A stretch of 60,054 nucleotides of DNA. It comes from Candidatus Daviesbacteria bacterium RIFCSPHIGHO2_02_FULL_43_12 (lineage in GTDB: Bacteria; Patescibacteriota; Microgenomatia; Daviesbacterales; UBA10151). The notes beneath the pieces were generated by a model. It saw only the letters and a list, made by a program, of their open reading frames with translations, did no database searches and was not told the origin of the DNA. This document shows positions 4,110 to 60,054 of this stretch, in pieces (the first letter of the stretch is position 1; the number at the start of each line of letters is the position of its first letter). The stretch covers positions 7,969 to 68,022 of the forward strand of contig MFDD01000015.1 of NCBI GenBank assembly GCA_001776775.1, written 5' to 3'. A program made the translations under genes and the position numbers.

Positions 4110-5896
4110 ATAAAGTTATGAACCAATCAGGACAGATAGTAATCCTAGCGCTGATAGCAGTCGCAGTTGTTTTAGTGAATGTATTGATTATTATTGGTGG
4201 CGGGCTTCTAGTCACCCAAAGTTCAACTAACTCTATTTCTCAGTCTCAGGCGATCAACTTAGCTGAGGCGGGTATTGATAAAGCCGTGGCTACACTTAAT
4301 GCTACTGCCGGCGCCTATACCGGAGAAGAAGAGATTCCGCTGGGTAATGGATCTTATTCGGTAACGATAACTTCTTTAAACCCGACTACAAAATCAATTC
4401 AGGCTACTGGATATATCCCAAGTAAAACTAATCCGGAGGCCCAAAAAACAGTTAAGATACAGGTTTCAAAGGGTATGGGGGCTGCCTTTAATTATGGGTT
4501 GCAAATTGGAGACGGTGGTTTAAGTATGTCTAATAATGCTGTAGTTAATGGTTCTGTTTATGCCAATTCCAATATTTCGATGTCCAATAATGCTCAGATT
4601 ACCGGGGACGCTTATGTCGGAGGGGGAATACAACCTACCGCTGATCAAACAAGCGACTGCTCAGAGTTAAACTGTGGAGATTTTCAGTTCGGAAGAACAG
4701 CAGGAGGGCAGCTGGATATAGCCCAGGGATTTAAGCCGAGTGAAACGACAGTCTTAAACAAGATCCTCCTAAAATTAAAAAAAGTTGGCACACCGCCTGA
4801 CCTGACAGTCAGGATACTTGGCGATCAAAATGGTACTCCAAATAAAAATTCAGTTTTAGCGTCAGCTACTTTAACTGCCGCTCTGACAACAACGGAGTAT
4901 GGCTTTGTCGATGTGATTTTTTCACCGGCGCCATCTCTGACTGTGGACACGCTTTATTGGATAGTGATAGACACCTCAGTAAATTCCACTAATTACTGGA
5001 ATTGGTCGATGGATACCCTGCAAGGTTACACCAGAGATAACCCATATTCTCCTCGGTGGTCTCCTAACTGGCAAGCATCTTCACCAACCTGGAGTCCTAT
5101 CCCCGGTGATTTAGGGTTTCAAACTTTTATGGGTGGAGTGACCACTTCTTTAATTGGGGCAAATAATGTTGTCATTGGTGGCAATGCCCATGCCAACACC
5201 CTGCAAGACCTGATCGTAACTGGTGGTGCTTATTATCAGACAGCTTCAAATGTTACAGCCGGGTCGATGCATCCTAATTCACCAGACCCAATTGCCCAAT
5301 CGATGTCCTTATCGGCTGCTAATATCCAGGAATGGAAAGATACTGCCACGGCCCTGAACGTATACACCGGAGACATTACCAACTGTCCAGCTGCTTTAGC
5401 TGCCGGTAAATATGTCGGAAATATATCACTTCCCTCTAACTGTATGGTGGTAGTTGACTCCCCGATCTATGTTACTGGAAACTTAACATTAGATGGAAAT
5501 GATGTTATTCAACTTAATCCGAGCTACGGAGTTTCGAGTGGAACTTTTATTGTTGATCAAATAATCACTTTTAATAGTGGGTCCGGAAACAAGATTTTAG
5601 GTACTTCATCTAACGGTAGTTATCTGATCTTAATCTCTGAATTTAACTCCCGCGAGATCTCGGATCATAAATCAGCCGTGGTTATTAATAATAATGGTAA
5701 TATCGGTATCCTTTATAGTAATCTAGGAGCGATTGATGTTTCTAATAATAATACCTTTACGAGTATTTCGGCCTGGAAACTAAATCTGGAGAATAATGTA
5801 ATCATCAACTATGACCAGGGCTTAGCCTCTGCGTTTTTTTCTTCAGGACCAAGCGGATCATATACAGTGGTTAAGGGAACATACCAGCTAAAGTAG
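4106..5896 (+). CDS. Large pilus-associated protein (PilX-N-like anchor plus beta-helix-like repeats)
   Basis: N-terminus SGQIVILALIAVAVVLV...QAINLAEAGIDKAV. Internal NNAVVNGSVYANSNISMSNNAQITGDAYVGG repeats are bactofilin/beta-helix-like. Last gene before pilM. Confidence 0.55.
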   Translation: MNKVMNQSGQIVILALIAVAVVLVNVLIIIGGGLLVTQSSTNSISQSQAINLAEAGIDKAVATLNATAGAYTGEEEIPLGNGSYSVTITSLNPTTKSIQATGYIPSKTNPEAQKTVKIQVSKGMGAAFNYGLQIGDGGLSMSNNAVVNGSVYANSNISMSNNAQITGDAYVGGGIQPTADQTSDCSELNCGDFQFGRTAGGQLDIAQGFKPSETTVLNKILLKLKKVGTPPDLTVRILGDQNGTPNKNSVLASATLTAALTTTEYGFVDVIFSPAPSLTVDTLYWIVIDTSVNSTNYWNWSMDTLQGYTRDNPYSPRWSPNWQASSPTWSPIPGDLGFQTFMGGVTTSLIGANNVVIGGNAHANTLQDLIVTGGAYYQTASNVTAGSMHPNSPDPIAQSMSLSAANIQEWKDTATALNVYTGDITNCPAALAAGKYVGNISLPSNCMVVVDSPIYVTGNLTLDGNDVIQLNPSYGVSSGTFIVDQIITFNSGSGNKILGTSSNGSYLILISEFNSREISDHKSAVVINNNGNIGILYSNLGAIDVSNNNTFTSISAWKLNLENNVIINYDQGLASAFFSSGPSGSYTVVKGTYQLK

Positions 5897-5928
5897 TTCA
5901 TGGTTGATGGTTCTTAGTTAATGCTTTA
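5894..5928. repeat. Heptamer-word array (same word family as 190-224)
   Basis: TAGTTCA TGGTTGA TGGTTCT TAGTTAA TGCTTTA immediately after the stop codon at 5896. Confidence 0.55.
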
Positions 5929-11091: not shown

Positions 11092-11172
11092 TAGTTCGAA
11101 TGATCGTTATCTGTTCACTGTTCTCGGTTCACGGATTGAAAATCTATAGACTGTGAACTGTCAACCGTGAAC
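11092..11172. repeat. Heptamer-word hairpin between nusB and rpmF
   Basis: TAGTTCG...TGTTCAC TGTTCTC GGTTCAC at 11112-11132 faces TGTGAAC TGTCAAC CGTGAAC at 11152-11172 (complementary words). Confidence 0.7.
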
Positions 11173-11406: not shown

Positions 11407-13551
11407 CTAATCTGGCATTACGCCTGATTGACCTGCTAATTTTCCCTTATAGTATGGGTATTTGTCAAGCTCAGGACTGGCTTTGAGCATTTCTTTGGCC
11501 ACACTCTTGGTTTTTTCTATCAGGGGTACATCTGATAATGAGGCTATTTTTAGATCCCACCGACCGGCTTGTTTAGTTCCAAAAAGCTGCCCTGAACCTC
11601 TGATTTTTAGATCAATTTCGGATAATTTCAGCCCGTCTGAGGAGTTTTCTAAATTTTTGAGTCTTTGGATCACAAAAGGGTCTTCTTGCTCGGTAAATAA
11701 TAAACAAAAAGATTCTTTCCCCCCTCTTCCAATCCGCCCCCTTAATTGATGAAGCTGGGCCAGACCAAACCGCTCAGCTCCCTCGATAACCATGATTGTA
11801 GCATTGGGCACATCCACCCCTACTTCTACAACCGATGTAGAGACCAATAAATCTATTTTACCTGCTTTAAATCTAGTGATGACCTCCTCTTTTTCCTTGG
11901 GCCTAAGCTTACCGTGCAAAAGTCCAAGCCGAAACTGGGGAAATATTTGGGCTTGAAGCTTCTCAAACTCCGCTTTGGCAGCTTTGGCGCTAACCAGAGT
12001 TTCTGATTCCTCGATAAGAGGAGTTACCAGATAGACCTGATCCCCTCCAGCGATTTTTTTAGTCATAAAAGCATACGCGTCAAGTCGTTTATGAGAAGGT
12101 ACATAATGAGTCTTAATAGGCTTTCGCCCTTTGGGTAGCTCCCCTATGACTGAGACATCTAAGTCGCCGTAGATAGTTAATGCCACAGTCCGCGGAATTG
12201 GAGTGGCGGTCATCGTGAGGAAATGAGGGGCTAGATTTTTAAGATTATTATTTTGTTGACGAAGGATGGTGCGCTGTTTGACCCCGAAACGCTGCTGTTC
12301 ATCGATGACCACCAAACCAACATTTTCTTTCAGTAGTTTTTCGGATAATAAAGCATGAGTTCCGACAATAACATTGGGATAGCTATTAGCTATTAGCTCG
12401 CCTCGCTTCGCGGTCGAAGCGGGCTGGGGGTCTCTAGCTTCAGAATCATTTGGACTGTCTTCTTGTTTGACTAATAGCTCCTGGCTAATAACTCCCGACT
12501 TCTGTTTATTGAATTTACTGCTCCCTGTATACAGCCCAACACTCATTCCGAGAGGTTCAAGCAACTTCTTTAAGCTAGAATAATGCTGCATGGCTAGTAT
12601 CTCGGTTGGAGCCATCAGCAGACTTCTTAAGTGATTTCTAAAAGAGAGATAAATAGCAATGGCCGCAACAACTGTTTTTCCTGATCCGACTTCGCCCTGA
12701 ATCAAGCGGTTCATCGCTTGAGGTTTTTGCAGATCTTCAATAATTTCCGCCAAAACTGTTTTCTGTCCGTGGGTTAGCTCAAAAGGCAGGGATGATGTAA
12801 AGGTAGTGAGATCTGACTCATTGATCTTAAAACCCTTGGCGCTTTGTTTTTGCTTCCAGTCAGCACGCCTTTTTTGGGTAGAGAGTTGAATTTCCAGTAG
12901 TTCATCAAAACCCAGACGCGTCTTGGCCAGGTTAATTTCGGTAAATGACCTGGGAAAATGAATAGTCTGCAACGCTTTGCCAAGAGAAAACATCGCTTCT
13001 TTATACTCCAGAGGCAGTGGATCGACCAGAGATCCGAGTACCAGCGGTAGTAATGAATTAATTTTATCTCTCAGCCACTTTGAGTTAACCCCAAATGTTT
13101 CAGGATACACTGGCACCAGCCGACCGGTATGGAGTCCGATGGAGTTTTCGATGATTTTTTCCCAAGTAGGAGAAACCATAGTCAGTTTATTTTGCCGGCG
13201 GTCAACCTTACCGGATACATGTAAAGTATCCCCGGAGAGGATATTTTTAATCAGCCATGCCTGATTAAACCAGACTAACTCAACTGAACCGGATCCATCA
13301 TTTAAAATTGCTCGGGTTAAAGTTTTACCATATCGGCTACTAGAATTTTGGATATTCCAGACCTGACCCTTGATCGTCACCTCTTGATCAATCGGTGCTT
13401 CGGAGATTCTAATGATCTTTGAGTAATCGTCATAGCGAAAGGGAAAGTGGTAGATTAAATCCAAAGCAGTCATGAGTCCTAACTTTTCGAGCCTTTTAGC
13501 AAAACTTGGACCGACCCCTTTTAACCTTGAAAGCGGTATTTGCAAATCCAT
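11407..13551 (-). CDS. recG: ATP-dependent DNA helicase RecG (carries an in-frame repeat insertion)
   Basis: Wedge/OB N-terminus, Walker A GEVGSGKT, DEQQRFG (DEQH-type box), TATPIPRT, ...QLRGRIGRG. Confidence 0.93.
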   Translation of the reverse strand: MDLQIPLSRLKGVGPSFAKRLEKLGLMTALDLIYHFPFRYDDYSKIIRISEAPIDQEVTIKGQVWNIQNSSSRYGKTLTRAILNDGSGSVELVWFNQAWLIKNILSGDTLHVSGKVDRRQNKLTMVSPTWEKIIENSIGLHTGRLVPVYPETFGVNSKWLRDKINSLLPLVLGSLVDPLPLEYKEAMFSLGKALQTIHFPRSFTEINLAKTRLGFDELLEIQLSTQKRRADWKQKQSAKGFKINESDLTTFTSSLPFELTHGQKTVLAEIIEDLQKPQAMNRLIQGEVGSGKTVVAAIAIYLSFRNHLRSLLMAPTEILAMQHYSSLKKLLEPLGMSVGLYTGSSKFNKQKSGVISQELLVKQEDSPNDSEARDPQPASTAKRGELIANSYPNVIVGTHALLSEKLLKENVGLVVIDEQQRFGVKQRTILRQQNNNLKNLAPHFLTMTATPIPRTVALTIYGDLDVSVIGELPKGRKPIKTHYVPSHKRLDAYAFMTKKIAGGDQVYLVTPLIEESETLVSAKAAKAEFEKLQAQIFPQFRLGLLHGKLRPKEKEEVITRFKAGKIDLLVSTSVVEVGVDVPNATIMVIEGAERFGLAQLHQLRGRIGRGGKESFCLLFTEQEDPFVIQRLKNLENSSDGLKLSEIDLKIRGSGQLFGTKQAGRWDLKIASLSDVPLIEKTKSVAKEMLKASPELDKYPYYKGKLAGQSGVMPD
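12381..12493. repeat. In-frame palindromic insertion element, copy 1 (inside recG)
   Basis: Ends are AGCTATT AGCTATT AGCT ... CTAATAGCT CCTGGCTAATA. GC-rich hairpin at 12402-12423. The 32-nt core 12395-12426 is identical to 21898-21929. Confidence 0.8.
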
Positions 13552-13590
13552 TTACCGAGATTATACACTTAAAGGGAGGTTAAAATTTAA

Positions 13591-13689
13591 AAGTTCAAAG
13601 TCAAAAGTAAATGTTGAAGTTGAAAAGTAAGGACCCTTTTGACTTTTGAATTGTATTTTTGACTTTTGAGTTTCGACTTTTAGCTTGCC
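13591..13689. repeat. Heptamer-word palindrome in the recG / 13690 divergent spacer
   Basis: AGTTCAA AGTCAAA AGTAAAT GTTGAAG TTGAAAA... faces ...TTTTGAC TTTTGAA ... TTTGACT TTTGAGT TTCGACT. Centre is near 13632. Confidence 0.65.
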
Positions 13690-18261: not shown

Positions 18262-18345
18262 TAGTTGAGGAGTTGGTTGTTGGTAGTTCGTAGCGAGAAC
18301 AGAAATATTGTTTTCACACCGAACTCCGAACAACTAACTAATGAC
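18262..18345. repeat. Heptamer-word palindrome between atpB and atpE
   Basis: TAGTTGA GGAGTTG GTTGTTG GTAGTTC GTAGCGA ... ACCGAAC TCCGAAC AACTAAC TAATGAC. Confidence 0.6.
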
Positions 18346-18573: not shown

Positions 18574-18575
<2 letters not shown>

Positions 18576-18660
18576 TCAACAGCTATCAGTCATCAGTCGT
18601 CAGCAAGATCATCAGGATGCTTGTTTGTTTTAAAAGTCTGACAGCTGATAGCTGAAGACT
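18574..18660. repeat. Heptamer-word hairpin between atpE and atpF
   Basis: AGTCAACAGCTATCAG TCATCAG TCGTCAGC faces GTCTGACAGCTGATAGCTGAAGACT, with a 10-bp perfect CAGCTATCAG/CTGATAGCTG core. It shares the AGCTATCAG word with the murE element end. Confidence 0.7.
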
Positions 18661-21117: not shown

Positions 21118-21714
21118 ATGAAAATTATTCGCAGGATCGGAGCACTTTATTTTTTACTAATCGGCAGCTTTGAGGTCTATGCCCAGTTTCGGAATACTAT
21201 TTTTACCTCTTTAGGGAATGAATTAATATCTCAGGTGATCTATTTAAGTTTAGGTTTGGTTCTAGTTTATACAGCCTTTTGCTTATGGAAAAACCGGCGA
21301 AATTTTTTACCTTTTGTGTTTGGGCTCCTCTGTTTGGTCGGAACATACTCTCTCTTTAGTGTTTATATTTTAACCTATAACACGTCCGAGCTTTTAACGA
21401 CACAGCTCCAGCAGGTTATTTACTACCTGACGCCGATTTTACTGCTTTTTGGGATCTTAAGAAATCAGGCTAACGAGCATGACGGCCCATTGGTCAGAAA
21501 GTTTGTCAATATTTCTCTAGTGAACGGGCGGGCTCTGGTCTATCTGATCTATCTTTCCGGGGTGATCCTGATTCTAACTGGGATAATCACTGTGGAAGTT
21601 TTTCATGCTCCTCTGGCCGTTACCAATAAGACGCTAAATTCAATTTTACTCTTAGGGATAGGATTTTTGATATATCTCTACTTAAATTTTCACCGGAAAA
21701 GAAGTCAGTCTTGA
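21118..21714 (+). CDS. Unknown multi-TM membrane protein inserted after atpA
   Basis: About 6 hydrophobic segments. No motif recognised. Confidence 0.5.
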   Translation: MKIIRRIGALYFLLIGSFEVYAQFRNTIFTSLGNELISQVIYLSLGLVLVYTAFCLWKNRRNFLPFVFGLLCLVGTYSLFSVYILTYNTSELLTTQLQQVIYYLTPILLLFGILRNQANEHDGPLVRKFVNISLVNGRALVYLIYLSGVILILTGIITVEVFHAPLAVTNKTLNSILLLGIGFLIYLYLNFHRKRSQS

Positions 21715-22997
21715 GGTAGATATTTTTTGACCACTTTGACATCGCTCCAGGGAACTTCTCCCTGTCCTAAGTTCATGGACTGCTCATGTCCTTTACCGGT
21801 AATAACGATAAAGTCTCCCCGCTCGGCCATGGAGAGAGCAAATTTAATCGCTTCTTCCCTGTCGGGAATTTCAAACAATAGCTTGCCTTTAGCTATCAGC
21901 TCGCCTCGCTTCGCGGTCGAAGCGGGCTGATGGCTGTTAGCTTTTATAATATTTTTTTGCTGGCTAATAGCTAATAGCTCCTGACTGTTGACTAATTCTT
22001 TGAATTCTTTAGTCACCCCTGACCTTATATCCTTGTTGATCTTACTAACACTCTCATGGCGAGGATCCTCGGCAGTTAAAATAATAATATCGGAGTATTT
22101 AGAAGAAGCCTTACCCATAAAGGGACGTTTAGAGGAGTCCCGCTCACCCGCTGAACCGAAGACATGGATTAAACGAGCTTTAGTCTTTCTTTTAAGATCG
22201 GATAATATCTGCAAAAAAGCCTGGGGAGTATGGGCAAAATCCACCATGACGGAAAAATTCTTATTATAAAGCATCTCTTGTCTACCAATCGGGGCGCTAA
22301 AGCTTAAAAGAGCCCTTCTGATGTCCTGATCCGCTATTTTTAATCTCTTGGCCACCGCGATTGCTGCCAGTGAATTAGCGCGATTAAAGTGACCTAAAAG
22401 CCTAGTGTTAAAGGGGTACTTGCGAGGAGTAAAACTGGCTTTTTGGTTAGTTAGTGAATATGTATAAACAATCTTTTTTTGCAGTGACCTTTTAACTAAT
22501 CCAAAGGACTTATCGTCCATATTCAGGACTGCGACCTTGGCTTTTTTAAGCAGTTTTAATTTGGCCGCCAGATACTTGTTGTACGTTTTATGGTAATCCA
22601 GATGTTCATGGGTGATATTGGTCAGTACGGCGATATCAAAAGAAATCCCGGCAACTCTATTTTGATCAAGAGCATGAGACGTTGTTTCTAAAACGAGATA
22701 CTGCATTCCAGCTTTTTTGGCTCGACTGATATATTTATTCAAAGCCATGCTACTAGGTGTAGTAACATGAAAGCCAGTGTCAATAGCCTTGTCTCCAAGA
22801 TAGGCGCCGATGGTGGTAATCATGGCGACTTTAAGGCCTGCCTCATTGAGGATGTGATAGATTAAACTGGATGTAGTAGTTTTGCCATCAGTTCCGGTCA
22901 CTCCAATCACGGTCATTTGGCGGGAGGGAAAACCATAGCGAGTATTAGCGATAAGCGCTCTTCCCAGATGATAAGTGTTTTTTAATGTACGTAACAT
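21705..22997 (-). CDS. murE: UDP-MurNAc-tripeptide synthetase MurE (carries an in-frame repeat insertion)
   Basis: VIGVTGTDGKTTT P-loop, DFAHTP, FGSAGERD..KRP.MG, TAEDPR, ITGKGHE. The start is set at MLRTLKN...; the ORF-track start at 23162 would overlap murD by 100 nt. Confidence 0.85.
   Translation of the reverse strand: MLRTLKNTYHLGRALIANTRYGFPSRQMTVIGVTGTDGKTTTSSLIYHILNEAGLKVAMITTIGAYLGDKAIDTGFHVTTPSSMALNKYISRAKKAGMQYLVLETTSHALDQNRVAGISFDIAVLTNITHEHLDYHKTYNKYLAAKLKLLKKAKVAVLNMDDKSFGLVKRSLQKKIVYTYSLTNQKASFTPRKYPFNTRLLGHFNRANSLAAIAVAKRLKIADQDIRRALLSFSAPIGRQEMLYNKNFSVMVDFAHTPQAFLQILSDLKRKTKARLIHVFGSAGERDSSKRPFMGKASSKYSDIIILTAEDPRHESVSKINKDIRSGVTKEFKELVNSQELLAISQQKNIIKANSHQPASTAKRGELIAKGKLLFEIPDREEAIKFALSMAERGDFIVITGKGHEQSMNLGQGEVPWSDVKVVKKYLPQD
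21891..21986. repeat. In-frame palindromic insertion element, copy 2 (inside murE)
   Basis: AGCTATCAGCT...core 21898-21929 is identical to recG 12395-12426...TGGCTAA TAGCTAA TAGCTCC TGAC. Encodes SQELLAISQQKNIIKANSHQPASTAKRGELIA. Confidence 0.8.
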
Positions 22998-23061
22998 ATT
23001 ACTCTGTGGATTCACGATACATGATACAAGATTCATGAATCCTGTATCTTCAATCTTGAAT

Positions 23062-24441
23062 CTAGTTAAGCTTTCGGACTCTTTCTTTGAACTGGTCTCC
23101 CCTGTCTTTGTAGTTTTTAAACATATCAAAACTAGCACACGCCGGAGAAAGGATGACCACATCCCCAGGCTCGGCTATCTCGGCAGCTTTACTAACGATC
23201 TCCTCCATATTCTTACAACCTTCAATAATCCTAATTCTTAACCCTGCATTCTGAATTCTTAATTTGATCTGTGGCCATTCGATCCCAATCCCGATAATGG
23301 CTTTGATTGTTGAATCGTGACTAATCAGTTCTCCTAACTCACTAAAATCACTCTTTTTAGGAGATCCACCGAGAATTAAAATCTTGGGAGCCTTAAAGGC
23401 TTTGATAGCAGCGATAGATGGTGAGGGAGCCGTGGCAAATGAATCGTCGTAATATTTAACTCCCTTTAAATTCCGGACTAGCTCTAATCGATGTGGTAAG
23501 CCTTTAAAGTTTTTAACCGCCTCCCGAATTGCTTCGGTAGAGATTCCGATAATTTTAGCTGCCATAACCGCTGCGCAGACATTTTCCCAGTTATGTTTAC
23601 CGGGGATAAAGACCTCCGAGACATCGATTATATCTTCTCCCTCGCAGATGATTTTTTGGTTAGAAACATAACATCCCCTGGTCACTTCTCTTGAGCTGCT
23701 TATTTCGAATAGCTTGGCCTTGGACCCGGCAATCACTTGGCTGGTGTTAGCATAATCCGTATTGGCTATCAGATAATCCTGGTCTGTTTGCCAGGTAGTT
23801 ATCGCTCGTTTCGCCTCGGTGTAGCTATCAATTGATTTATGAACCTCCAGATGGTCTTCGGTGACCATTAAAACTACGGCGATATGGGGGCTTAGTTTCA
23901 AGTCCTGCAGCTGGAAACTAGACAGCTCTAACACCACCAGTGATGCAGGATTAAGCTTGTCCAAAAAACTTAAAGGCGAGTTACCGATATTGCCCCCCAA
24001 AAAAACATCGTCTTCTTCCATTTTGATAATCTCATAAATTAAAGTGCTGGTCGTGCCCTTACCCTTGGTTCCTGTTACTCCGATAATCGGACATGGACAA
24101 AGGTCAAAGAAGATTTGGGTAGTAGAGGTGATCTTAATCCCCAGCTGTTTTGCTTGTTTAATAGGTTGGCTATCTATGGGTACTCCTGGAGAGCGGACAA
24201 GTAATTCAAAAGATGAATCAATCTTTTGAGACTCAAATTCAAACACCACCCCCCTTTTCTCCAACCTTTTGATGGTTTGAGACTCAAAACCTTGACGAGG
24301 TTTAAGATCGAAGACGACAATTTTGGAAGCCTTCTGCAGAAGTGAAAATTCTATAGCCGACTCACCTTCTATGCCAAACCCAAGCACGCCCACTTTTTTA
24401 TCTTTGAAACTATCAAGTTCCATAAGGCTATTATACGTCAT
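23062..24441 (-). CDS. murD: UDP-MurNAc-L-Ala--D-Glu ligase MurD
   Basis: N-terminal Rossmann GVLGFGIEG, IIGVTGTKGKGTT P-loop, ...GLPHRLE..., typical MurD length. Confidence 0.9.
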   Translation of the reverse strand: MTYNSLMELDSFKDKKVGVLGFGIEGESAIEFSLLQKASKIVVFDLKPRQGFESQTIKRLEKRGVVFEFESQKIDSSFELLVRSPGVPIDSQPIKQAKQLGIKITSTTQIFFDLCPCPIIGVTGTKGKGTTSTLIYEIIKMEEDDVFLGGNIGNSPLSFLDKLNPASLVVLELSSFQLQDLKLSPHIAVVLMVTEDHLEVHKSIDSYTEAKRAITTWQTDQDYLIANTDYANTSQVIAGSKAKLFEISSSREVTRGCYVSNQKIICEGEDIIDVSEVFIPGKHNWENVCAAVMAAKIIGISTEAIREAVKNFKGLPHRLELVRNLKGVKYYDDSFATAPSPSIAAIKAFKAPKILILGGSPKKSDFSELGELISHDSTIKAIIGIGIEWPQIKLRIQNAGLRIRIIEGCKNMEEIVSKAAEIAEPGDVVILSPACASFDMFKNYKDRGDQFKERVRKLN

Positions 24442-37348: not shown

Positions 37349-39025
37349 CTCTAGCTCTAACTCAATGATCGCGATTCTTTTGTCGCTGCCAAATTTATTG
37401 ATTACTCTTGGGTGAACTTCAGCCAAGATGCCACTTGAAAACTTTCCTGACTGAATCCGCTGCTGTCTAGCAGGATGGAAGTAGTCTTGTTTTTCCCTGC
37501 TTTCTACCTTAAAGCCGATATAGAGCATCTCGAGTGCTTTTTTAATTAGCTGGTAGAGTTCTTCTGTGGGATTATCTGTATCATTAGAAAGAGCAATACT
37601 TAAAAAGTAGCTCTCTTTGGGTAACTCCCCTGGCTGCAAGTTAAAGACTTTACCTATTTCAAATATAGCTACATCTTTGAAATGTTTCAGGTTAAAGCTG
37701 ACGACCTCTAAGAGATTTGGCCATAAAGCGTTACGCAGATATGCTGTCTCCGCAGATATGGGATTGAGAATTTTGACTAATTGCCGCTGATCTGTCCCCA
37801 AACTACCTAAAACCTGAGTAGAGAAGAACGAATAGGTTTGAACCTCTTTTAATCCAACTGTCGCAAGAGATTTTTTTAGTTGATGGATAAATTCAAATTT
37901 AGATTGATCTATTTTGGACGGGGGGCTACCTGGCAATGGTGACTTTGGGATTTTTTCATATCCGTAAAGCCTGGCTATTTCTTCAATAATATCTTCTTCC
38001 TGCTGGCAGTCTAGCCTAAAATATGGAGGACTAACTTGCCAGGTATTTTCATCCACTGTTTTGACAGTAAACTGCAACCTGCCAAGAATTGATTCGATCT
38101 CTTTTTTGCTTAATACTGTGCCGATCAAATTATTTATCTTTGAATAATGAAGAATCAAGTTAATCGGGACTGTCTGAAAGTCTCCCTTGAGGGATAGGGC
38201 GGTTACTTTTCCTCCAATGGCCTGATACATTTTAATAGCCGCACTATATGCCTGCAGCAAGCCTTGCATCGTTAATCCATGCTGGAATCTACGGCTGGCT
38301 TCAGAATGTAAATTCAATCGAGAAGCAGTCCTACGCACATGTTGTGGGTTAAACATTGAGGCGGAAAGCAGGATAGTGGTAGTTGACGGCTTGATCTCTG
38401 TGTCCTTACCACCCATAATTCCAGCGACATCCAAAGCCTTTTCGTCATCGGATAAAACAATATCTGCATCAGTCAATACTCTCCTTTTATCATCCAGAGT
38501 GGTGAGAACCTCTCCTTTTCGGGCCAGCCTAACATTAATAGTATGGTCTTTGACTGCCTGGGCATCAAAAGCATGTAAAGGTTGGCCATATTCCAGCATG
38601 ATCAGATTGGTAATATCCACAAGGTTATTAATTGATCTAATCCCGGAATCGTGTAATTTTTTAACCCAATTAGCGGGAGAAGCCTGCACTGTCAAGCCTT
38701 CTATTCGGGTAACGCACTGAACAGGAGAGAGTTGTAAATCTTCGATACCGATCGGTGTAGTCTCAAACTTGTTTTTGCTCCAAATAAAGTCCTCCTGGCT
38801 TGACCCTTGACCTTTGACCCTTGATACAGTGATCGCCGCTATCTCCTGAGCTACTCCTCTAAGGGAAAGAAGATCAGCCCGGTTGTATCCTTTCATATCC
38901 AGCTCAAAAAAGTCTTTGGTGACTTCCTTGATGCCAATTGTCCGCTTTGGAAGCAGGTCCATGACCTCGTCCACCGGCCTGTCCAGGTCTATTAATTCTT
39001 TTAGCCAATCTTTAGATACTTTCAT
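37340..39025 (-). CDS. pheT: Phenylalanyl-tRNA synthetase beta subunit, reduced (561 aa)
   Basis: MKVSKDWLKELIDL N-terminus, B3/4 and B5 blocks (...GIMGG...), catalytic-like domain. Follows pheS. Confidence 0.9.
   Translation of the reverse strand: MKVSKDWLKELIDLDRPVDEVMDLLPKRTIGIKEVTKDFFELDMKGYNRADLLSLRGVAQEIAAITVSRVKGQGSSQEDFIWSKNKFETTPIGIEDLQLSPVQCVTRIEGLTVQASPANWVKKLHDSGIRSINNLVDITNLIMLEYGQPLHAFDAQAVKDHTINVRLARKGEVLTTLDDKRRVLTDADIVLSDDEKALDVAGIMGGKDTEIKPSTTTILLSASMFNPQHVRRTASRLNLHSEASRRFQHGLTMQGLLQAYSAAIKMYQAIGGKVTALSLKGDFQTVPINLILHYSKINNLIGTVLSKKEIESILGRLQFTVKTVDENTWQVSPPYFRLDCQQEEDIIEEIARLYGYEKIPKSPLPGSPPSKIDQSKFEFIHQLKKSLATVGLKEVQTYSFFSTQVLGSLGTDQRQLVKILNPISAETAYLRNALWPNLLEVVSFNLKHFKDVAIFEIGKVFNLQPGELPKESYFLSIALSNDTDNPTEELYQLIKKALEMLYIGFKVESREKQDYFHPARQQRIQSGKFSSGILAEVHPRVINKFGSDKRIAIIELELELK
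38799..38826. repeat. 4 x 7-nt tandem repeat inside pheT
   Basis: CTTGACC CTTGACC TTTGACC CTTGATA on the + strand. Encodes ...SRVKGQGSS... on the minus strand. Confidence 0.75.
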
Positions 39026-39110: not shown

Positions 39111-40162
39111 AAGAGCCTCAGGTCGCCATTTCTCAGCTGGCGCATATCCGAGATTCCCTGTTTTAGCATCGTCATTCTCTCTGGAGAGCATCCCCAGGCG
39201 ATCCCAGAATACTCATTAGGATTAATCCCCCCCGCTCGCAAGACGTTGGGATGAATCATCCCCGCCCCACCCAGCTCTAACCACCCCACCCCTCCACAGA
39301 TATTGCACCCCTTACCACTACAAAAAATACACAGTCCATCAACGCCCGCTCCTGGTTCAACAAAGGGGTAATATTTAGGACGAAGCCTGGCCTTGATCTC
39401 GGGTCCAAAAACGGCCTTTAGGAAATATTCTGACAAGTAGAGCAGATTGGCCAGGCTTAAGCCTTTATCAATATATACCAGTTCAAATTGGTCAAAGGTA
39501 TGCTCATGGCGGGCATCGGTACTTTCATTGCGAAAACATCTTCCGATATTCATAAACCGTACCGGAGCCGGATATTCTGTCATAATCCGGATTTGAGAGT
39601 TAGAAGTGTGTGTTCTCATCAGAATTCGACCAGGTTCAATCCCAAAGTTGGTTGAATCGATGTAAAAGGTATCCTGTAAGTCTCTAGCCGGATGGTTTTC
39701 GGGAATATTAAGAACCTGGAAGTTGTTAATATCGGTATCGATCTGAGGTGCGTCATATTGCTGGAAGCCAAGTTTAGAAAAAACCTGCACAATATGGTTT
39801 TCAAATTCGGTTAAAGGATTCAAGGCGCCTTGGCGTTTTTTAATTTCAACTGGACTGCTTAGGTCTAGCGACTCTCTTTCTAACAGCGAGTAACCTGTCT
39901 CGCGAATTGTCAGTCGCTTATTGCTTATCGCTTTTTCTAGCTCGAACTTTACGCCATTAAACAGCGGACTAACAAGTTGAAGCTGGTCTTTGGAGAGTTT
40001 AGAAAATTCCTTAGGAAGTTTGGTAACAGCTCCTTTTTTGCCAAATAGGGCCAGAAAATGCTCGTCTAGCTCTTTGAGAGAGCTGGCTTGTTTAATCTTT
40101 TTTAAATATGTATTTTTAATATCCGCTATCTTGTCCTGCATATTATTGCTTGATTCTAGCAT
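39080..40162 (-). CDS. pheS: Phenylalanyl-tRNA synthetase alpha subunit (start possibly Met at 40141)
   Basis: Class II motifs ...HPARD.QDTFY..., ...RTHTS..Q.R., ...GRCFRNE..D..H...F.Q.E..., ...GAGMIHP.VL... Confidence 0.95.
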   Translation of the reverse strand: MLESSNNMQDKIADIKNTYLKKIKQASSLKELDEHFLALFGKKGAVTKLPKEFSKLSKDQLQLVSPLFNGVKFELEKAISNKRLTIRETGYSLLERESLDLSSPVEIKKRQGALNPLTEFENHIVQVFSKLGFQQYDAPQIDTDINNFQVLNIPENHPARDLQDTFYIDSTNFGIEPGRILMRTHTSNSQIRIMTEYPAPVRFMNIGRCFRNESTDARHEHTFDQFELVYIDKGLSLANLLYLSEYFLKAVFGPEIKARLRPKYYPFVEPGAGVDGLCIFCSGKGCNICGGVGWLELGGAGMIHPNVLRAGGINPNEYSGIAWGCSPERMTMLKQGISDMRQLRNGDLRLFESLGSSVKV

Positions 40163-52638: not shown

Positions 52639-52678
52639 CCTACTATAGGATATAAAAAATTGTTACAGAGTCAAAAAG

Positions 52679-52761
52679 TGCCCAAGAGAGGACTTGAACC
52701 TCCACGCCCTTACGGGCACATGATCCTAAATCATGCGTGTATACCATTTCACCACTTGGGC
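52679..52761 (-). tRNA. tRNA-Leu(UAG)
   Basis: Class II tRNA: GCCCAAG acceptor, anticodon arm CATGA-TTTAGGA-TCATG, long variable arm GCCCGTAAGGGCGT, T loop TTCAAGT, discriminator A. Confidence 0.9.
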
Positions 52762-59937: not shown

Positions 59938-60020
59938 GCCCAAGTGGTGGAATGGTAGACACGTACGCTTCAGGTGCGTATGACCGTAAGGTTGTGGAGG
60001 TTCAACTCCTCTCTTGGGCA
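59938..60020 (+). tRNA. tRNA-Leu(CAG)
   Basis: GCCCAAG acceptor, anticodon arm TACGC-TTCAGGT-GCGTA, long variable arm, T loop TTCAACT, discriminator A. Confidence 0.9.
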
Positions 60021-60054
60021 CATTATCAATCTTGTAATTCGGTAAATATTCGGG

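Follow-up and report, generated by a model that had tools for sequence, protein, structure and literature searches.

The window analysed here is the whole 60,054-nt stretch of contig MFDD01000015.1 from Candidatus Daviesbacteria bacterium RIFCSPHIGHO2_02_FULL_43_12, a member of the Patescibacteriota. Two of its minus-strand housekeeping genes, murE and recG, carry in-frame insertions that contain the same 27-nt, GC-rich hairpin element set among heptamer repeats. The first host gene encodes a MurE-type Mur ligase (21705..22997, minus strand; 430 aa from Met56 of open reading frame (ORF) 21705-23162). Its ORF matches Pfam domains Mur_ligase_M and Mur_ligase_C, and its best relatives in the Protein Data Bank (PDB) are MurE structures (4BUB at E = 5e-61). 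The protein begins at the equivalent of T. maritima MurE residue 89 and so is without the N-terminal Mur ligase domain, which is likewise missing from its 390–430-aa orthologues. Met56 (22997) is most likely the true start, as in a 99% identical protein of 430 aa (P0001), and the first 55 codons of the ORF, which contain a heptamer array at 23016-23063, are probably untranslated. The second host gene (11407..13551, minus strand) encodes a RecG helicase of 714 aa with Pfam domains RecG_wedge, DEAD, Helicase_C and RecG_dom3_C and an alignment to 1GM5 at E = 7e-137.

The MurE insertion (KELVNSQELLAISQQKNIIKANSHQPASTAKRGELIAKG, K388-G426) occupies 21885..22001 on the minus strand, 117 nt or 39 codons. 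It has no counterpart in L050 and L051, the closest orthologues (~61–67% identical, murD-murE-atp-recG synteny), which read GVSKDF/KQLHEIPDRE where the window reads GVTKEF, 39 aa, KLLFEIPDRE. The initial annotation had estimated about 33 aa, which falls short of the 39 aa found relative to these orthologues. On the coding strand the insertion consists of five heptamers, an A/T-rich stretch ending in CATCAG, the core, and then CTGATAG CTAAAGG. The heptamer-derived arm, TTAGTCA ACAGTCA GGAGCTA TTAGCTA TTAGCCA (ELVNSQELLAISQ), lies at 21960..21998 (minus strand) and includes a period-7 array detected by Tandem Repeats Finder (TRF) at 21963-21979. The variable A/T-rich middle (21927..21959, minus strand) encodes QKNIIKANSHQ. 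The core (CTCGCCTCGCTTCGCGGTCGAAGCGGG, plus strand, 21900..21926; covariance-model hit of 47.5 bits) is read from its reverse complement as P413-E421, PASTAKRGE. On its other side a heptamer remnant, recognised by its period-7 register (CTGATAGCTAAAGGC, encoding LIAKG), fills 21885..21899 on the minus strand. Deleting the core brings the period-7 register back (CATCAG/CTGATAG). The 7-nt words of the initial annotation are real TAGCTAT/TAGCTAA repeats by TRF, but they do not form a right end of the element, since the core is nested inside a heptamer microsatellite.

The inserted segment lies in a loop of variable length. From I-x-x-G-I to IPDR this loop measures 17–45 aa in 72 MurE orthologues and 58 aa in the window, and the 4BUB alignment is interrupted at query 332/377, opposite 4 structure residues. 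The insert peptide, whose conservation in other MurE proteins would have counted against the initial annotation, was sought in the same 72 orthologues and occurs in none. A protein search with a 40-aa query taken from the insert gave no match. Structure modelling had been proposed as a check on whether the loop is tolerated. The AlphaFold model, for which the 72 aligned sequences served as input, has a mean predicted local distance difference test score (pLDDT) of 91.6 that falls to 55–79 exactly over residues ~333-371, where the insert is modelled, at low confidence, as a protruding helical hairpin. At the nucleic acid level, the core-centred 57 nt fold at −29 to −30 kcal/mol (z −4.4 and −6.3), and 131 nt including both arms fold as a long hairpin at about −41.4 kcal/mol (z = −4.1). 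The two arms pair because TAGCTA is itself a palindrome.

A sister strain (L049) has both element copies and is 99.981% identical to the window over 21,293 nt, with mismatches at 21935, 21941, 21944 and 28695. The first three fall within 10 nt in the variable middle of the murE insert and are all non-synonymous (K to E, A to S, S to G), a pattern suggestive of relaxed constraint or of a single complex mutation. In the MurE of another Microgenomate (P0028, L174:1001-2404) the same loop (NSKFEIRNSK) holds a perfect in-frame (AAATTCG)x4 array and no core. A further, unrelated insertion of ~49 aa in P0028 follows the FIKEAITD helix.

RecG contains an extra segment of 96 nt or 32 codons (12397..12492, minus strand), identified from the PDB alignment and an orthologue, that reads VISQELL, then VKQEDSPNDSEARDPQ, then PASTAKRGE. 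The 1GM5 alignment is interrupted at query 353/386 with zero residues between, and the syntenic orthologue of L051 has 19 aa opposite 52 in the window. The sister core lies at 12397..12423 on the plus strand and corresponds to P377-E385, again PASTAKRGE; it was detected both as an exact repeat and by the covariance model. A perfect TAGCTAT x2.7 array (12380-12398, TRF) follows the segment, and the heptamer family and junctions (TAG/core/CTG) are those of the murE copy.

An exact-repeat search placed GCTCGCCTCGCTTCGCGGTCGAAGCGGGCTG (31 nt, plus strand) at exactly two sites in the window, 12396-12426 and 21899-21929. None was expected, and none was found in 100 dinucleotide-preserving shuffles of the window. 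If the A before it is included, the identity spans 32 nt (12395-12426 and 21898-21929), in agreement with the initial annotation; outside this genome, though, only 27 nt of it are conserved as a unit (21900-21926; 12397-12423). Similarity between the two loci extends to 55 nt at 87% identity (12386-12440 versus 21889-21943). A second common block, CTAATAGCTCCTG, is 83% identical (12471-12493 versus 21971-21993), which bears out the sharing of the right-hand block with recG. ORFs and Pfam also confirm two single-copy housekeeping hosts on one strand, which translate the element in one orientation and frame (SQELL, variable stretch, Q-PASTAKRGE-LIA). The two are sister copies, derived either from a block of 55 nt or more that moved or from conversion between TAGCTA arrays. 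Repeat and covariance-model searches detected no third family member within the window, and its remaining GC-rich islands are ordinary coding sequence.

The element has the architecture 5′-CTCGC-CTCGCTTCG-CGGT-CGAAGCGGG-3′, with 27 nt and 74% G+C. It folds at −12.4 kcal/mol into a hairpin of 9 bp closed by a loop of 4 nt, and CTCGC forms the 5′ tail. Base counts over 51 copies show conservation confined to the 27 nt from CTCGC to GGG, with sharp borders. The 5′ CTCGC tag is present in 49–50 of the 51, and beyond the borders only a G at −1 (33/51) and a pyrimidine at −4 (44/51) are common. Family variants keep the CTCGCC..CG and CG.AGCGGG termini, differ in their centres and all fold as hairpins. 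Their lengths are 24, 27 (loop CAAG), 30, 33, 39, 42, 45 and 48 nt, with one 22-nt deletion form. Eight of the nine non-canonical lengths are multiples of three, intergenic variants included. No such bias is seen where these termini recur by chance in GC-rich viral contigs (21 of 60). The family was also considered as the footprint of a larger transposon, and this was rejected: the longest variant with these termini in 1.2 Mb of loci is 48 nt.

When 185,579 species genomes were scanned for an exact 22-mer, 48 genome loci matched. Carriers, as labelled, include many Patescibacteria, Planctomycetota (one Sedimentisphaerales metagenome-assembled genome (MAG) with contigs of 0.7–0.9 Mb), Ignavibacteriota/Bacteroidota, MAGs labelled Gammaproteobacteria and two MAGs labelled Nanoarchaeota (label unconfirmed; Pfam matches on neighbouring genes were not diagnostic). 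A degenerate scan of metagenomes gave at least 118 matches; among the matches listed, 87 were the canonical 27-mer and most of the non-canonical ones were chance hits in GC-rich DNA. After related flanks were collapsed, at least 105 independent contexts of the 27-mer remained. The 27-mer is a non-autonomous element present in many unrelated lineages. The exact core is absent from IMG/VR, and PLSDB plasmids and GenBank phages gave chance-level hits only, in GC-rich DNA. The portal gene of one low-GC phage contig (IMGVR_UViG_3300007351_000082) contains, in frame, a family member of 39 nt (L221:13061-13099). Terminase and MuF-like genes adjoin it, and this setting points to a possible route between hosts. 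Literature searches found the 27-mer and its six peptides in no paper and no description of such a repeat.

Copies occur in and between genes. Within long ORFs lie 48 of the 89 copies with enough flank (54%), and nearly half are non-coding. Frames were assigned for 46 of 49 independent intragenic events, and all six are used, so that one 27-mer yields the peptides PASTAKRGE, PLRPRSEAS, RFDREARRA, SPRFAVEAG, LASLRGRSG and RLASRSKR. PASTAKRGE is the most frequent (21), followed by SPRFAVEA (7), LASLRGRS (6), PLRPRSE (6), RFDREARR (5) and RLASRSKR (1). Hosts with intact ORFs are MurE, RecG, the ATPase described below, TsaD, aminoacyl-tRNA synthetases and DnaX. Housekeeping hosts are entered at differing positions, as in TsaD (5 loci, 5 sites or frames), class-I aminoacyl-tRNA synthetases, Mur ligases, DnaX, alanine racemase (Alr) and TsaE. 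An element of nine codons that is 74% G+C and stop-free can enter a tolerant loop, leave the host protein intact and simply be translated. If the copies are read through, junction peptides such as SHQPASTAK or DGSPRFAVEAGK are expected. The core is stop-free in all six frames, as are 50% of its own shuffles but only 5% of window 27-mers; the property, though useful, is a consequence of GC-rich composition, because half of the shuffles share it. The initial annotation had offered two readings of the shared frame, frame-constrained survival of insertions and a functional peptide module. The former fits a stop-free unit of 27 nt, or 9 codons, in loops that homologous structures lack, while the use of six frames and the large non-coding share argue against the latter.

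Gain and decay are visible in a copper P-type ATPase, where the core sits at one codon in at least nine divergent genes. Close orthologues (120 sequences, 73–87% identity) were gathered independently of the element; 117 are empty, with the sequence R-D-G-K-E, and 3 are filled. Filled alleles are polyphyletic, and many empty alleles are closer to a filled one than other filled alleles are (rank 37–112 of 119). The empty allele L173 reads AGA GAG GG/A AAA and the filled allele L152 AGT GAT GG-27 nt-A AAA, a gain of exactly 27 nt with no target duplication beyond the ambiguous G(G). Another filled allele, L172, is decaying, with four substitutions. The L171 copy carries a 21-nt insertion in its own loop, and L139 also carries a nested insert. 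The cases of L152, L172 and L171 indicate in turn that copies can be acquired, that they decay and that they can receive insertions of their own.

The same Gly codon is filled in two distant ATPase subfamilies (L012, L031, L042, L086, L089, L123, L128, L145, L152, L154, L171, L172). Every filled allele has Ser, encoded by AGY or TCN, in place of Arg two codons upstream. Other ATPase orthologues have different small inserts at the same turn. Further GC-rich palindromic mini-elements, ending in GGGAATGAC or CGCAATGAC, occur in frame in these ATPases (L152:614-3076, L089:41-2422), and mini-elements with these endings also occur in L005, L024, L028, L043, L048, L057, L062, L069, L114 and L126. They encode peptides such as VIPAKAGIQ and IARSEATKQS, which were found in no paper by the literature search, and their loop often houses the 27-nt core.

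Landing sites are not random. Core deletion restores an in-register period-7 array in about one quarter of copies, as in AAATTTG/core/AAATTTG. A period-7 score of at least 0.6 was obtained in the flanks of 21 of 121 copies, against 1 for periods 5, 6, 8 and 9, and left and right flanking 7-mers agree within one mismatch in 19 of 121. Landing in heptamer arrays is enriched roughly 35-fold, because arrays occupy <1% of the window. Within arrays the insertion-site context is TTTG/ or YCAG/. L074 has two cores two heptamers apart, a direct doublet and the only doublet seen. Insertion is also polar: the strand that carries the element is the T-rich one in 25 of 27 arrays, all 10 of the 10 copies nested in GGGAATGAC-type palindrome loops point the same way, and intragenic copies are oriented 33:16 relative to transcription (p = 0.02).

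Heptamer arrays also occur where there is no core. Period-7 arrays number 13 in the window, where dinucleotide shuffles give 1.25 (~10-fold), and other periods are not enriched. Arrays with many different units lie at 190-280, 1466-1499, 5893-5921, 11111-11132, 13579-13681, 18262-18293, 18574-18603, 23016-23063, 23232-23264, 38799-38824 and 39914-39933. They occupy almost every intergenic spacer and a few gene ends, and some form inverted pairs. At 13579-13681, between recG and its divergent neighbour, (GTCAAAA)n stands opposite (CTTTTGA)n in a long heptamer inverted repeat. Seeding of the arrays by a 7-bp target duplication was rejected, given the clean 27-nt ATPase gain and the arrays without a core. 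A 6–9-nt direct repeat at the murE insert borders misfits the insert length and was not used. An excess of heptameric microsatellites is known in bacteria and little studied (Nostoc STRR, Xanthomonas GGGAATC; PMC4692102). The arrays in the window share with these the period-7 excess, mostly intergenic position and inverted pairs, and differ in also lying in frame in protein loops and serving as the landing site for a second element.

A conserved intergenic composite, GGAGCTGG-N10-GCTCGAA/element/CYTATCAAAGTATATCAC, was observed upstream of consecutive genes (L032:1220-1300, 1860-1960 and 2800-2900) and also in L006, L020, L041, L061, L071 and L124. In gene orientation it presents a TGnTATACT extended −10-like box, the hairpin, ~60 nt and ATG. 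It has no Rfam, tRNA or tmRNA match. Insertion into a tmRNA or tRNA T-loop was dropped as a candidate, as ARAGORN found none at this site with or without the core. An Rfam scan of the window and five related loci returned tRNAs only. Two tRNA genes in the window, at 52667-52761 and 59938-60032 on opposite strands, form a 95-nt inverted repeat with 81% complementarity and are probably two related long-arm tRNAs.

The murE segment is best read as composite selfish DNA and not as enzyme design. A heptamer microsatellite of the TTAGCTA family would have colonised a MurE surface loop, and one 27-nt hairpin element would be nested at a heptamer boundary. We consider the element, with a probability of roughly 0.7, to be a very small, selfish, strand-specific hairpin element that is mobilised in trans and tolerated in protein loops. 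It lands preferentially where DNA can be single-stranded or slipped, at heptamer unit boundaries and in palindrome loops, with fixed polarity, and would be mobilised by strand-specific machinery acting on single-stranded nucleic acid. Given the lack of a recurrent transposase near ~170 loci and the small number of exact copies in each genome, the mobiliser would be unlinked, either external or a host function. The first candidate, a possible but doubtful one, is an HUH/Y1-type single-stranded DNA nuclease as in REP/RAYT and IS200/IS605, suggested by the 5′ tag with hairpin, the lack of target duplication and the polarity, as for REP/RAYT. A clearly less probable second candidate is an RNA intermediate. 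Phages or other transferred DNA would probably carry the element between phyla.

Several observations weigh against a mobile element of this kind. Exact copies number at most three per species-representative genome, which is low for a proliferating element, and no transposase or other non-host family recurs within 2.5 kb of ~170 loci. No near-identical genome pair differing solely by the element was seen, the sister strain having both copies. All copies except the ATPase set were found by sequence match, so their identity is partly ascertainment. Stem covariation is weak, with one pair represented by UA, AU and CG and thus showing two compensatory changes, a level equalled by 9 of 500 shuffles, and the stop-free property is half-expected from base composition. 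Finally, the repeated use of one nucleotide position in the ATPase, together with the Arg-to-Ser change, is not explained by weakly specific transposition.

The best surviving alternative, itself unlikely, is a selected nucleic-acid signal. This would be a functional motif in DNA or RNA, for example a site recognised by a protein or nuclease, a hairpin that pauses or stabilises mRNA, or a sequence of the uptake type, whose identity is kept by selection and which is spread by recombination. Identity of 27/27 across phyla would fit such a signal, as would the orientation bias relative to transcription and the L032 copies in 5′ leader-like composites upstream of genes. The filling of one ATPase site in two distant subfamilies, coupled to a Ser codon of either the AGY or the TCN type, suggests long persistence. 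However, a genome has one to three copies in unrelated genes and positions with no common gene class, the host phyla have different machineries and no Rfam family matches. Nearly all close ATPase orthologues (117 of 120) do without the element, and one copy is visibly decaying.

Less likely still is a purely local origin, in which heptamers expanded independently in two loops and ~55 nt were transferred by ectopic gene conversion with no transposon-like mobility. The flanks of the window copies are indeed shared beyond the core, with the same palindromic TAGCTA heptamers, and period-7 arrays are 10-fold enriched in the window and occur in the same MurE loop elsewhere. Local events nevertheless leave unaccounted for the clean 27-nt ATPase gain and the at least 105 contexts with unrelated flanks in other phyla. 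Local conversion may have been the last step that made the second window copy.

A functional peptide module, with QPASTAKRGELIA as a useful surface feature of MurE and RecG, is close to refuted. The equal frame in both window hosts, the prevalence of PASTAKRGE (21 of 46 intragenic frames) and the modelled helical hairpin speak for it. Yet the same DNA gives six peptides elsewhere and about half of its copies are non-coding, the peptide is missing from the 72 MurE orthologues, model confidence over the insert is low, and strains 99.98% identical differ by three non-synonymous changes within it. It is about as improbable that the element is skipped or removed instead of translated, as with a mitochondrial byp or T4 gene 60; a GC-rich hairpin in A/T-rich coding sequence is byp-like, but bypassing needs neither 3n lengths (8 of 9 variants) nor a stop-free sequence, and no take-off/landing codon pair is conserved around the copies. 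An assembly or sequencing artefact, adapter or chimera can be set aside: although every source is a metagenome assembly, copies lie mid-contig and in frame in independent projects and assemblers, variant, decayed and nested copies exist, and two independent assemblies of this lineage carry the element.

As a trans-mobilised hairpin, the element resembles cyanobacterial small dispersed repeats (SDRs) and Rickettsia palindromic elements (RPEs) and belongs to neither. SDR1-8 of Nostoc and relatives are reportedly hairpins of 21–27 nt, often set in tandem heptamers or other small elements. They are also said to be nested, to lack a linked transposase, to be confined to one cyanobacterial subgroup and to move by a proposed RNA route. 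Insertion of SDR5 into HIP1 has been described (PMC4390886). The 27-nt element is likewise a dispersed hairpin repeat, with a 9-bp stem and at least 105 contexts, in-register heptamer arrays around about one quarter of copies, palindrome-loop sites, nested copies and no linked transposase. It differs in that 0 of 48 genome loci are cyanobacterial and several phyla are represented, a distinction drawn from host range. We know of no report of in-frame life in essential genes or of 3n lengths as SDR features.

RPEs are reportedly Rickettsia-specific and roughly 100–150 bp long. The element shares with them a palindromic repeat in frame in functional housekeeping genes and a peptide tolerated at the protein surface, and it differs in its 27-nt conserved unit and its Microgenomates-type Patescibacterium host; only the window composite (96–117 nt) is RPE-sized. 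RPEs are also not known to be linked to heptamer arrays. A summary of RPEs is given in PMC3733652. REP/REPIN systems with their RAYT partners use GTAG- or CGTC-tagged REPs (PMC3733652, PMC3116915), which are occasionally intragenic, notably in replication and repair genes (PMC3733652). Common to REPs and the element are an imperfect hairpin of 20–40 nt, a conserved single-stranded 5′ tag, the lack of target duplication and probable handling specific for single-stranded DNA. In contrast, the tag of the element is CTCGC, exact copies number at most three per genome versus hundreds that are mainly extragenic, and 54% of copies are intragenic. REPIN inverted doublets were not seen, the sole doublet (L074) being direct, and no RAYT was found within 2.5 kb of ~170 loci. 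The element is identical across phyla, whereas REPs are lineage-specific.

Miniature inverted-repeat transposable elements have terminal inverted repeats, target duplications and lengths of 50–500 bp, whereas the element gains exactly 27 nt with no duplication. IS200/IS605 elements are similar in lacking target duplication, in strand-specific insertion (here 25/27, 10/10 and 33/16) and in hairpin ends. Their insertion is 3′ of a fixed tetra- or pentanucleotide; at the sites of the element the preferences are those at −1 and −4 and, in arrays, TTTG/ or YCAG/. Yeast mitochondrial GC clusters and byps are short, mobile, GC-rich hairpins found in spacers and genes of A/T-rich genomes, byps being 27–55 nt long. 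They differ in being organellar and of unrelated sequence, and byps are skipped by the ribosome, whereas the length and frame of the element point to read-through translation.

A wider proposal is made more tentatively and may well not hold in full. In it the 27-mer belongs to a family of 24–48-nt hairpins that are adapted to coding sequence (3n, stop-free), use heptamer arrays and hairpin loops as landing pads, are mobilised in trans and strand-specifically without a linked transposase, cross phyla, possibly between Bacteria and DPANN archaea, and are partly phage-borne. Such a family would extend the biology of the smallest mobile elements, known from one cyanobacterial group, to several phyla and tie it mechanistically to heptamer repeats, and its 3n, stop-free design would be a case of selfish DNA that has adapted to life within genes. 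As a practical tracer, the 27-mer, identical in several phyla, marks recent exchange of DNA in groundwater and sediment communities. Annotators should mask inserts of this type ahead of any inference of homology or structure. Proteins of the candidate phyla radiation (CPR)/Patescibacteria are full of unexplained insertions, and heptamer arrays with a nested hairpin offer a concrete, testable source for some of them. If the proposal is true, no broadly distributed mobile element described so far would be smaller, and this one would generally supply microbes of reduced genome with insertions in protein loops.

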